Positions 4,849 through 61,321 are shown, counted from the first letter of the stretch. The stretch is DNA of 64,000 nucleotides from an uncultured Methanosarcinales archaeon (GCA_964566535.1 CAZMIO010000001.1:247751-311750); one strand, 5' to 3'. Numbers and translations: made by a program. Notes: a model not told the origin generated them from the letters alone.

Positions 4849-4993
4849 TGTCGAAAACCACCATGCTAAATGAGTAGTATATTCCACATGCCACTAACAT
4901 ATGAGGTGGTTTTTGAGCATACTCAGAATACTGCTGAGGATATCTGTGATTTATGTAGTAAATCACCACTTTAGGAAGAGCAGTATTCTGATA
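4849..4993. repeat. Double-hairpin palindromic mini-element, copy 1 (expanded loops)
   Basis: TGTCGAAAACCACC..GGTGGTTTTTGA-GCATAC-TCAGAATACTGCT..AGCAGTATTCTGATA; same scaffold as 31075, 48620, 60438. Confidence 0.75.
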
Positions 4994-31074: not shown

Positions 31075-31128
31075 TGTCAGAAATCGAAGATTTCTGAACA
31101 TGCTCAGAAATGCCTTGCATTTCTGACA
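31075..31128. repeat. Double-hairpin palindromic mini-element, copy 2 (54-bp minimal form)
   Basis: TGTCAGAAATCGAAGATTTCTGA-ACATGC-TCAGAAATGCCTTGCATTTCTGACA. Confidence 0.85.
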
Positions 31129-31244
31129 TTCCTAGCCCTAAATAGTGAAGGGAAATTGCATATGGGAAATCTTGGATTCAAACTATATAAATATTGCCTT
31201 AAATACAAAACTTTATAAATTTCTAGGGGTTTTTTAGCTGTAAA

Positions 31245-31389
31245 CCCCATGTAGCTCAATGGCTAGAGCGTTCGGCTGTGACCAAGTAATTGGTGGCTAT
31301 AGATACGTTTTGACCATATGCGCAATGCAAGGGATGACTGGACGTCAGTCGTTACCGGAAGGTTGCTGGTTCAAATCCGGCTATGGGGA
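31245..31389 (+). tRNA. tRNA-Tyr(GTA) with two introns (35/36: 31280-31300; ~37/38: 31303-31353)
   Basis: Acceptor CCCCATG/TATGGGG with C1:G72 and A73; D arm GCTC/GAGC; T arm GCTGG-TTCAAAT-CCGGC; BHB removal of intron 1 restores CT-GTA-GA; TATA at 31212-31219. A single-intron reading would give His(GTG). Confidence 0.8.
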
Positions 31390-48619: not shown

Positions 48620-48711
48620 TGTCGAGAATCGCCAGTCATATTTCAGTGGAATATTGCTGATTGTATCAGGCGATTCTTGAGCATGCTCAGAATTTTCTGA
48701 AAATTCTGACA
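48620..48711. repeat. Double-hairpin palindromic mini-element, copy 3 (expanded left loop)
   Basis: TGTCGAGAATCGCC..GGCGATTCTTGA-GCATGC-TCAGAATTTTCTGAAAATTCTGACA, between convergent genes. Confidence 0.82.
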
Positions 48712-59716: not shown

Positions 59717-60253
59717 TTTTTCCTTCTTGTAAGTTCCCATCAATTCAGCTTTTGCTAGGGTATGTTTTTCTATCTTTTCTAAGAAGTTGTCTTTTGTCAC
59801 GTCTGTTAATGATTCTATGTCTAATGCGTAGAGCTTGAAGAAATACCTGTGAGTTCCTGTTGGTGGACATGGACCTCCGTACTCTTCTTTTCCTAAATCA
59901 TTTGTAACTTGTTTACCTGGAACTGAGTTTTGAGGTATCTGCGCTACATCTGCTGGAATGTCATAAACTAACCAGTGTGTCCATGTACTGGTTGGAGCAT
60001 CTGGGTCATCTACAATTAATGCGAAGCTTTTTGTTTCCGATGGTGCGTCTTCCCACTTTAAATGTGGATTTTTATTTGTACCCTGACATGTAAAATCTTT
60101 CGGGATTTGATCTTCATTCTCAAAGTCTTTGCTTGTTAGTATCATAGTTTTGGCCTCCTGTTGGATTGTGATTGGTTCGTTGGTATTGGTTTGTTCGGTT
60201 GAACAAGATGTTAAAAACAGCACTAGTATTGCAGTTAATAAAATTTTATTCAT
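59714..60253 (-). CDS. YbhB/YbcL (PEBP family) protein with lipoprotein signal
   Basis: FLTSC lipobox; DDPDAP..WTHW, YGGPCPP.G.HRYFF.LYALD. Confidence 0.9.
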   Translation of the reverse strand: MNKILLTAILVLFLTSCSTEQTNTNEPITIQQEAKTMILTSKDFENEDQIPKDFTCQGTNKNPHLKWEDAPSETKSFALIVDDPDAPTSTWTHWLVYDIPADVAQIPQNSVPGKQVTNDLGKEEYGGPCPPTGTHRYFFKLYALDIESLTDVTKDNFLEKIEKHTLAKAELMGTYKKEK

Positions 60254-60288
60254 ATAAGTATAATTTAGATGATGGTTAATAAATATTA

Positions 60289-61212
60289 CTATTCAGAACT
60301 AGGAGCTTCTTCGGATTTTGGTTCTGTTCCTGAGCTTTCTTCTACTGGTGATTGTTCTGGTTTTTCTTCTGGTTTTTCTTCTACTGGTTCAGCTTCTTTT
60401 TTCTCTTCTTTTTCTGATCTTTGAGAATCTTTAGGCTTGTCTGAAATCGAAGATTTCTGAGCATGCTCAGAAAAGCTTCGCTTTTCTGACATCTCTAACC
60501 CTTTCTCGTTTTCACTCGAAAGTTTTGATTCTTCTTTTGTCTCTTCTTGTTTCTCTTCTGCTGGCTTGGTCTCTTTTGGTTCTTCGTTATCTTCAACTAT
60601 CTCAACTTCTTCTTCTAATCCTTCAATCTTTCTTAGTTCTTCAATTGCTAGGTACCTTATTTCACAGATACCTAAAGGATAAATCTTTCTTAAGTGTGAT
60701 TTTAAGAAACTTTGAAGTTTGTGAGAAACTAGACCGTTTAAAATGTCTTCATAACTTGATTTCTTTAAGGTTTTAGTCAAGAAATCAACTGTCTCTTTTC
60801 TTAAACTTGTTTCAGTAGAACCTTTTGTGGTGATCTTGATTAATAGGATTGGCTTAACTCTTATTCTCTTGTTATCTGATGTGTGGCAAATGAATGAGAT
60901 GTCCACCCGTTTTTTACCCTTTCTGATAAGTCTCTTTAGAGAAGCAGGGATTATTTCATAACCTATAATTTCAGTTAATGCTTTATCTTCTTTAATTGAT
61001 TTTATCTGGAATTTGATGTTGATGTTTTGTTTTTTTGAATCATTAATAAGATTCATTAGATTTACGCTTACAGTTTTACCAATAAGTTCGTTTGGTTCGT
61101 TGGCTAGTGTTTCCCCTAGTGGATTCTCCCTAAGTAGCTTAGGTGCAATAATCTGGAACCATTTCTTATGCTTTACTTTTAATATTTTCTTCTCTTCTTT
61201 AGTTTCTGCCAT
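60289..61212 (-). CDS. rps3ae: 30S ribosomal protein eS1 (S3Ae) with Glu/Lys-rich C-terminal tail
   Basis: KKWFQIIAP, LGET.A..P..LIG, KIYPL..CEIR; long acidic tail. Confidence 0.9.
   Translation of the reverse strand: MAETKEEKKILKVKHKKWFQIIAPKLLRENPLGETLANEPNELIGKTVSVNLMNLINDSKKQNINIKFQIKSIKEDKALTEIIGYEIIPASLKRLIRKGKKRVDISFICHTSDNKRIRVKPILLIKITTKGSTETSLRKETVDFLTKTLKKSSYEDILNGLVSHKLQSFLKSHLRKIYPLGICEIRYLAIEELRKIEGLEEEVEIVEDNEEPKETKPAEEKQEETKEESKLSSENEKGLEMSEKRSFSEHAQKSSISDKPKDSQRSEKEEKKEAEPVEEKPEEKPEQSPVEESSGTEPKSEEAPSSE
60438..60491. repeat. Double-hairpin palindromic mini-element, copy 4 (54 bp, in-frame in rps3ae)
   Basis: TGTCTGAAATCGAAGATTTCTGA-GCATGC-TCAGAAAAGCTTCGCTTTTCTGACA; encodes MSEKRSFSEHAQKSSISDK. 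Confidence 0.88.
60501..60522 (-). repeat. Tandem-GA mini-hairpin inside rps3ae
   Basis: Minus strand CTTTC-GA-GT-GAAA-AC-GA-GAAAG. Confidence 0.5.
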
Positions 61213-61321
61213 CTGGGTAGTGAAAATTAGGAGCATTTAAAAACTTTTCCTTCTTGGCTGAAAAAACAAAACATAAGTTATATAAATGGAGGGGGGTTAA
61301 AATCGATTTAGGGGGAGAAAT

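Follow-up and report, generated by a model that had tools for sequence, protein, structure and literature searches.

The gene for ribosomal protein eS1 (S3Ae) of a tiny marine archaeon carries in its tail-coding part two 18-codon elements, here called A and B, of which A lies nested within B. The gene is part of the window, the 64,000-nucleotide (nt) stretch analysed here (C1:247751-311750), which comes from a Woesearchaeota-type DPANN genome (G000; 1.45 Mb in 37 contigs, 35.5% G+C, 91% complete). We read positions 60418–60525 as a pair of gene-less 54-nt double-hairpin repeats that were inserted, are retained in the mRNA and are translated, with A representing a non-autonomous family of mobile or selfish DNA in Woesearchaeota-type DPANN archaea, and we assign this reading a probability of about 85%. 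Both elements would accordingly have been gained by insertion, and would together contribute 36 extra residues to the disordered C-terminal tail of eS1.

Two nested double hairpins in the eS1 gene

The globular domain of eS1, as covered by the Pfam family Ribosomal_S3Ae, comprises residues 14–195, and since the family match stops there, the remaining ~115 residues (approximately 200–315) form a tail rich in Glu, Lys and Pro. A first-pass annotation of this DNA had proposed that the tail is broken in frame by a 54-bp (18-codon) repeat copy, and both the sequence and the open reading frame (ORF) bear this out. Element A encodes residues M249–D266 (MSEKRSFSEHAQKSSISD; codon-aligned span 60439–60492). 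On the plus strand it consists of TG, a 21-nt hairpin (TCTGAAATCGAAGATTTCTGA, 60440–60460), the linker GCATGC, a 23-nt hairpin (TCAGAAAAGCTTCGCTTTTCTGA, 60467–60489) and CA; in the coding sense of eS1 the 23-nt hairpin precedes the 21-nt hairpin. Its boundaries are set by copies of B that lack A, together with the loose ends of other copies at 60437/8 and 60492. Of the span 60438–60522 originally given for the element, the start therefore stands, while the end has to be moved to 60491; likewise, the 19-residue string first quoted for its peptide contains the 18 residues of A plus the following Lys, which lies outside.

A 1892-nt contig from an independent marine run (X9, record 25) matches positions 60100–60524 with zero differences, so that both junctions of A are real and no assembly artefact. 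When the window was scanned with the 20-nt core, allowing up to three mismatches, eight strand-matches (four sites) were returned against 0.02 expected, and none of 100 shuffles reached eight. RNA folding of the eS1 region gave a z-score of −3.0.

The sequence on either side of A belongs to element B, a second 54-nt double hairpin with the coding sense AAACTTTCGAGTGAAAACGAGAAAGGGTTAGAGAAGCCTAAAGNTTCTCAAAG and the peptide KLSSENEKGLEKPKxSQR. Five B copies without A read through the junction unbroken (TTTAGGCTT directly followed by CTCTAACCC; CTTTGAGAAnnTTTAGGCTT directly followed by CTCTAACCCTTTCTCG). Compared with these, eS1 is longer by exactly 54 nt (60438–60491, with a one-base ambiguity), and the flank is not duplicated. 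Because the uninterrupted copies differ by just this length, A can be placed in the 5′ arm of B hairpin 2, inserted without target duplication. Hairpin 1 of B, which contains a tandem G.A/A.G pair, spans 60501–60522 (coding sense CTTTCGAGTGAAAACGAGAAAG, peptide LSSENEK). Such a tandem-GA hairpin close to A had been recognized in the first-pass annotation, correctly as to its place 8–9 nt from A, but it is one half of B and not a feature of its own. A kink-turn reading of this hairpin was discarded, the 3-nt bulge being absent on inspection by eye. In ten B copies 95.4% of 130 stem cells are paired, compared with 36–58% in slid controls, and 13 double-sided changes were counted against 3.6 in shuffles (0 of 500 reach 13); the G.A/A.G pair is nearly invariant.

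The order B-left, A, B-right recurs in two eS1 relatives (P0004 and P0041), at the N-terminus of an endonuclease V (P0144) and beside trpA in genome G377. Either B offers a site that A prefers, or what moves is the composite as a whole. In the last of these cases (L081, G377:C1), at the downstream end of a trpA-like ORF, the composite has a TGA in its first hairpin and is flanked on both sides by a 20-nt direct repeat, ATCAAAGRTTTTTCAAAAA.

Table 1. Positions of the eS1 gene, of elements A and B and of related repeats (window numbering unless a contig is given).
Feature	Position	Strand	Basis or remark
Ribosomal protein eS1 (S3Ae) gene	60289..61236	minus	ORF, 315 amino acids (aa); Pfam PF01015, E 1e-40; identical protein in public collections
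Element A in eS1, 54-nt double hairpin, TG..CA	60438..60491	minus	Sequence, inverted repeats, family architecture, covariation of both stems
GCATGC linker, centre of the invariant family palindrome TGAGCATGCTCA	60461..60466		Core matches, copy alignment
Element B, downstream half in coding sense (KPKDSQR), 3′ arm and loop of hairpin 2	60418..60437	minus	Five further G000 B copies join both halves directly
Element B, upstream half in coding sense (KLSSENEKGLE), hairpin 1 and start of hairpin 2	60492..60525	minus	B copies, covariation
Intergenic 54-nt copy of A	31075..31128		Between a minus-strand gene start and a putative tRNA gene (by eye); DNA fold z = −5.35
Larger family member, TG..TGA-GCATGC-TCA..CA frame, 59-nt left and 23-nt right hairpin	48620..48711 (approximate ends)		Core matches, architecture
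Larger family member, 66- and 69-nt hairpin modules, core GCATAC	4849..4993 (approximate ends)		Core matches, architecture
Element B copy elsewhere in G000	C1:2095-2193		In frame
Element B copy elsewhere in G000	C10:8385-8535		In frame
Element B copy elsewhere in G000	C13:20038-20136		In frame
Element B copy elsewhere in G000	C14:403-560		In frame
Element B copy elsewhere in G000	C2:155924		In frame

An alignment of eS1 with nine distinct relatives shows that six of them have no such segment (P0003, with 62% identity, P0005, P0006, P0007, P0030 and P0039), and that three contain related segments. P0002, which is 75% identical, has MSETQSVSEHAQKSSISD at the same tail position as G000; P0004 has two, VSETQRVSEHAQKSTISD at the C-terminus and, further up the tail, a decayed copy; and P0041 has a decayed form elsewhere in the tail. 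For the same-position copy of P0002, orthology is conceivable, and so are a site that is targeted repeatedly, conversion between genes, and a stem under selection. The core, scored at the DNA level, is absent from 29 of 29 eS1 loci of other species representatives. With six of nine relatives and all 29 further loci devoid of segment or core, the segment is neither ancestral nor conserved; the orthologue alignment that the first-pass annotation had suggested thus yields no conservation as protein. One could nevertheless regard the segment as an old protein-level feature of the eS1 tail, for instance a short linear motif, that was lost in some lineages. Its presence in four lineages (G000, P0002, P0004, P0041), once at the same position, is what such an origin would produce, but the absences just described, the other tail places used in P0004 and P0041, and the occurrence of the same 54 nt 33 times outside genes in G000 and in many unrelated proteins make this origin hardly credible.

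An apparent empty eS1 allele in metagenomes (four marine runs) was also considered and rejected, as its two signals, a gap of 55 nt with one letter added in X9 and loose ends at 60492, both trace back to paralogous B copies of G000 (C14, C13, C10, C1).

Architecture and spread of element A

G000 has 28 exact occurrences of the 12-mer TGAGCATGCTCA, and 39 when one mismatch is allowed, compared with 0, 0 and 0 exact matches and 1–4 with one mismatch in three shuffles. Four of the 39 sites are plain chance matches in genes. A single architecture unites the remaining 35: (W)TG, TCARAA..hairpin..TTYTGA, GCATGC, TCARAA..hairpin..TTYTGA and CA(T), in which hairpin modules of 20–78 nt are freely combined. 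Spacers, whether divergent, convergent or tandem, hold 33 of these copies, near gene ends, and long ORFs hold two (eS1 and an epimerase). The intergenic copy near 31075 that had been reported earlier was recovered with its 54 nt, open in the equivalent frame. A putative tRNA gene, recognized by eye at 31240–31300, starts ~110 nt downstream of it.

To describe the short form of the family, we used 34 distinct copies from G000 and more than 20 other genomes (38 rows, including four duplicate loci). Exactly 54 nt were found in 22 of them and 51–59 nt in the rest; 33 open with TG, and 32 close with CA. Twenty 54-nt copies align without gaps, and 98.2% of 380 cells in their two stems are paired, a value that drops to 24–53% in controls in which the partner was slid by 1–3 columns. 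The stems contain 30 double-sided changes compared with 8.2 in shuffles (0 of 500 reach 30); as the sequences are related, this shuffle count is no probability, and the slid controls retain that relatedness. Hardly any variation across families is seen in the stem bases and the 12-nt palindromic core. As to a target motif, GAYA precedes several genic copies and CTAAGCC-like words stand in several flanks, and the 38 flanks give a weak preference for A before the opening TG and T after the closing CA alone, so we make no claim for one.

Both TGA triplets of the 54-nt consensus in its 23-then-21 orientation share one frame, which leaves this orientation with two open frames, MSETQSVSEHAQKSSISD and CQKRKAFLSMLRNLRFLT, and the 21-then-23 orientation has a single one, CQKSKISEHAQKRFAFLT. 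Three of the six frames are stop-free, then, and not one per strand as had been supposed. Genic copies were seen only in the fully hydrophilic first reading (...SEHAQK...).

The distribution of A was followed in 401 genomes sampled from the GTDB order of G000; all order-wide tallies (core 18-mer, A profile, B profile and the transposase family Y1_Tnp) take in the unpublished genomes G132, G207, G374, G121, G205 and G315. The core 18-mer TTYTGAGCATGCTCARAA is present in 54 of the 401 genomes, with 1–30 sites in each, and its reversed control gave 0 in every genome. Copies from G002 and G075, which belong to different GTDB families, differ at two of 54 positions; the eS1 proteins of other genomes in the order, G002 included, are at most 45% identical to that of G000. 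In a scan of 596 Gb, the named records carrying the core are, among the 117 matches listed, mostly metagenome-assembled genomes of Candidatus Woesearchaeota, Nanoarchaeota/Nanoarchaeia and Pacearchaeota, and the single bacterial matches among them fit the ~35 estimated to arise by chance. Third-party annotation (TPA) bins named ‘uncultured Methanosarcinales archaeon’ (L103, L142, L143, L150, L152, L163 and others) hold many core copies among the matches listed. For these carriers, either the label is wrong or the A family reaches beyond DPANN.

Short copies of A are themselves nested in the palindromic core, or at the same point, of larger family members and of other repeats (L058 and L082 in G170; L039 and L069 in G072), with flanks ending in GGTTCTTGAG and resuming with CACACTCAGAATTCC. 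On contig C9 of G000, three 54-nt units follow each other head to tail with a period of 54 (L032 1813–1974; C9:37312-37473), and the array lies ~30 nt upstream of the archaeal signal recognition particle (SRP) RNA gene (L032 2006–2278; Rfam RF01857, 137.6 bits).

These properties invite the question whether the double hairpin is a nucleic-acid signal under host selection, for example a regulatory RNA structure or a DNA site that forms a cruciform or binds a dimer, the coding copies being by-products of it. Core and stem bases that barely change across families while the stems covary, the spacer location, close to gene ends, of 33 of 35 copies, the three tandem units just upstream of the SRP RNA gene, and the failure to find a mobilizing enzyme among seven transposase families all fit such a role. 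A host signal, however, would not be expected to be so unevenly distributed (1–30 sites in each of 54 genomes, out of 401), to use divergent, convergent and tandem spacers alike, or to turn up in unrelated proteins at non-homologous sites and nested in other repeats and in copies of itself. No Rfam family matches the eS1 locus either, and the tandem array gave sub-threshold chance matches alone (32.7 bits compared with a gathering score of 100). We consider a host signal unlikely, and prefer to see in A a dispersed modular family that behaves as non-autonomous mobile or selfish DNA.

Elements A and B within other proteins

The second genic copy of A in G000 adds VSKMQSIFEHAQKSSISD, in frame, to an enzyme resembling ADP-L-glycero-D-manno-heptose 6-epimerase. 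Among orthologues with 67–76% identity, five have no insert (P0148, P0150, P0152, P0157, P0176); in P0149 an A-type insert occupies the site used in G000, and in P0147 one lies five residues further on. This second site is occupied in P0168 by a B-type insert (LSNDGEKGLEKLKTFQK) and in P0174, at residues ~61–78, by an unrelated 18-residue insert, LLEVEEETRRGWREGKSS, which may represent a further element family. Orthologues with and without A differ by exactly 18 residues, and most of the 120 homologues listed are 293–305 aa long, compared with 315 aa in G000.

A profile of the A peptide matches 68 of the 401 genomes, mostly in short frames. Eight of these loci were checked, and in six the copy lies in frame within a real gene: uL3 (G002), a DUF371 protein (G075), the G domain of SRP54 (G187), an Lhr-type helicase (G306, a decayed copy), the acidic tail of ScpB (G266) and the N-terminal edge of phosphoenolpyruvate (PEP) synthase (G076). 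The remaining two lie beside trpA (G377), with a stop, and in a 93-aa frame. At the insert, SRP54 of G187 has 16 extra positions relative to the P. furiosus SRP54 structure. Alignments with PDB entries are ambiguous for the epimerase and uL3, as the solved homologues have different loops at the insert; close orthologues settled the case of the epimerase. A search of 1.84 billion protein cluster representatives (E ≤ 0.001) returned 39 matching proteins, most of them short ORFs predicted where a copy lies in a spacer. Pfam was run on ten, eight of which were also read, and identified two P0 proteins (one with two copies), a fusion of asparagine synthase and diphthamide synthase, and endonuclease V, besides two more long hosts with sub-threshold matches alone and four without a match. 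Every verified genic copy reads ..EHAQ/EHDQ... The expectation of a searchable S/FEHAQK-type signature was therefore well founded, as it occurs in unrelated proteins in both data sets.

Because a peptide search favours one frame, 29 loci picked by their DNA were also examined. Two are genic, namely uL3 and a ChlI-type AAA ATPase with a 51-nt variant, and both are in frame. The other 27 are not inside a recognizable gene (three spanning frames were read; the rest were judged by length, 116–138 aa at most).

Element B behaves differently in that it was found only within genes, mostly in ribosomal-protein tails. All eight copies in G000 lie in open frames, those outside eS1 being in the tails of eS6, eS19 (two) and P0, in a 398-aa protein without a Pfam match (two), and, as a weaker copy, in the N-terminal tail of AglB. 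The B profile yielded 18 matches in 11 of the 401 genomes, 18 of 18 in open frames of 103–704 aa; the hosts checked are the tails of uL22, uS4 and eS24, the N-terminal extension of eS28, LplA, a methyltransferase and methionyl-tRNA synthetase (MetRS). This restriction to coding DNA is odd for a mobile element. The extension of eS28 (L213, G256:C3), about 100 residues long, consists almost entirely of decaying tandem B units, five or more in number (KLPKLSSGNEKLPKLSSENEKGLEKLKTSQREGLENPKDSQKDLGKSKTSQREGLGNPKDSQK...).

Archaea splice bulge-helix-bulge introns, and A might on that account be removed before translation, as an intron-like RNA or by a programmed bypass, leaving an eS1 protein without the 18 residues. 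The strong RNA structure of the element is compatible with such an event. The predicted folds, in contrast, are two plain hairpins or a central hairpin, and in neither the RNA nor the DNA folds did inspection by eye, made without a dedicated search for the motif, reveal the two 3-nt bulges separated by a 4-bp helix. Moreover, the genic copies in unbiased sets keep a length that is a multiple of three (54, 54, 54 and 51 nt) and a stop-free frame, both needless if A were removed, and even where the core palindrome has degenerated (VSDDDQK, VSDDAQK) the copies have remained in frame. Removal thus appears very improbable to us, and these same features (length, an open hydrophilic frame, decayed copies that stay in frame, no visible bulge-helix-bulge) lead us to infer that A is translated. 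In this sense, the earlier proposal that the minimal element preserves the frame and would create new peptide segments agrees with the exactly 18-codon in-frame inserts predicted in eS1, the epimerase and other proteins.

Possible mobility, related elements and consequences

We propose that copies of A land mostly between genes, and that few would persist within them. Those that do would have a length that is a multiple of three, would be read by the host frame as E-H-A-Q in the core, giving a hydrophilic loop rich in Ser, Glu and Lys, and would sit at tolerant sites, in a tail or a surface loop. The missing duplication and the hairpin ends point towards a nuclease that recognizes hairpins or cruciforms, as in IS200/IS605, repetitive extragenic palindromic (REP) and mitochondrial double-hairpin elements; we would guess that A is moved by such an enzyme acting on single-stranded or cruciform DNA.

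Several observations weigh against this reading, with respect to movement as well as to translation. Seven transposase families (Y1_Tnp, the TnpB domain, DDE_Tnp_1, rve, DDE_3, Transposase_mut and IS110) gave no match in the 91%-complete G000. Y1_Tnp (PF01797), found in 132 of the 401 genomes, is loosely associated with A, with 25 of 54 carriers compared with 107 of 347 others by a hand tally in which relatives are not independent; carriers without it are G076, G325, G050 and G072, of which G076, G325 and G072 are well assembled. Viral contigs of IMG/VR contained 0 core matches, and no near-identical strain with an empty eS1 site was found. The A segment of P0002 has a different hairpin, its left stem differing by a compensated pair, as judged from the peptide. 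Genic copies collected with the peptide profile are biased towards the frame that was modelled. A look for RNA runs containing the eS1 locus listed none, and retention of the eS1 insert in the mRNA and its translation are predicted from conservation of frame and stop codons.

The closest parallel is offered by the Rickettsia palindromic elements (RPEs), which are described in the consulted part of PMC10969869 as ~100–150 bp long, falling into ten families and confined to Rickettsia, which are bacteria (Ogata et al. 2000), and, at ~150 bp, with 44 insertions in genes of R. conorii. Like RPEs as they are portrayed there, A is a gene-less palindromic repeat that lies between genes and, unusually often, in frame in unrelated housekeeping genes, absent from orthologues, and that adds a conserved peptide without destroying the host protein and without a known transposase. 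Unlike them, it measures 54 nt (18 codons), resides in an archaeal host (in eS1, P0 and, as B, eS19), and is built as two hairpins around a 12-nt palindrome, with modular hairpin length and the ability to nest; A and the RPEs are set apart here by host, length and description, not by direct sequence comparison. The mitochondrial DNA of chytrids and of Schizosaccharomyces octosporus contains double-hairpin elements (DHEs; Paquin et al. 2000, Bullerwell et al. 2003, cited in PMC10085805), which are, in the portions of that article used here, similarly short, protein-less, presumably mobile and made of two adjacent hairpins, in spacers and occasionally in genes (rnl). They are, in contrast to A, GC-rich, mitochondrial and few per genome, and those portions mention for them neither an in-frame location within protein genes nor a palindromic linker that is conserved, both features of A. 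A resembles RPEs or DHEs in the way it works, while belonging to neither.

Resemblances also extend to REP sequences, REP doublets (REPINs) with their REP-associated tyrosine transposases (RAYTs), and the palindrome-associated transposable elements (PATEs) derived from IS200/IS605, all linked to Y1 HUH enzymes: these are hairpin-based with subterminal hairpins, insert without target duplication, and are small, dispersed, mainly extragenic and sometimes clustered or in tandem. Apart from their bases, however, the two hairpins of A do not mirror one another as inverted copies. No Y1_Tnp gene was detected in G000, and 25 of the 54 carriers in the order have one. A REP is a single 20–40-nt palindrome with a GTAG/CGTC tag at one end (PMC3733652, as far as excerpted), whereas A ends in TG/CA and is a doublet around GCATGC. 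With MITEs, short for miniature inverted-repeat transposable elements, A shares its small size, non-autonomy, multiple copies, terminal inverted repeats (TGTCARAA...TTYTGACA) and ~90% intergenic location; unlike them, it has no target-site duplication (no flank repeats were seen by eye in the 38 listed copies) and no parent insertion sequence in G000, and its 54 nt lie at the very bottom of the size range of 50–800 bp quoted for MITEs in the text excerpted. A census (PMC11602168) reports, in the part available, a Woesearchaea genome with 105 MITEs per Mb, and its MITE lists may contain the A sequence. The sections consulted of a MITE review (PMC10969869) name archaeal MITEs only for Sulfolobus, Halobacterium, Haloquadratum and Desulfurococcus. 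Our full-text literature search returned no description of the A family or of in-frame palindromic elements in DPANN archaea. That the tandem-GA hairpin belongs to a gene-restricted element B, and that the eS1 tail holds a nested pair of 18-codon elements, is likewise new.

For 25 years, palindromic elements lying in frame have counted as a peculiarity of Rickettsia. The DPANN version is much smaller and cleaner, with 18 codons, two hairpins and no duplication, and its inserts reach some of the most conserved proteins of the cell (eS1, uL3, P0, SRP54 and MetRS). The peptide and DNA signature can be searched for and helps to annotate inserts that would otherwise resemble lineage-specific loops. 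It also calls for caution, as such segments should be taken neither for functional motifs nor for phylogenetic characters in trees of DPANN ribosomal proteins. At the same time, they amount to insertion scans made by nature, which reveal where essential proteins tolerate an insert, and they pose the mechanistic question of what moves a 54-nt hairpin pair in genomes without a recognizable transposase.

More tentatively, 18-codon units (A, B and perhaps more) may exceed the role of passengers that are merely tolerated and be a main source of the long lineage-specific Lys/Glu/Ser-rich tails and loops on ribosomal and housekeeping proteins of Woesearchaeota, an idea to which we would give clearly less than even odds. 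Hints in this direction are the two B copies each in the eS19 tail and the 398-aa protein, the decaying tandem B units of the eS28 extension in G256, the P0 tails with one or two decayed A copies, and the single epimerase loop that independently took A (at two sites), B and a third 18-residue insert. With A nested in B and B confined to coding DNA, the question of how disordered ribosomal-protein tails arose can be put to a direct test. If the idea is true, selfish DNA would write new protein into the translation apparatus in quanta of 18 residues, and older copies would decay into low-complexity tails.

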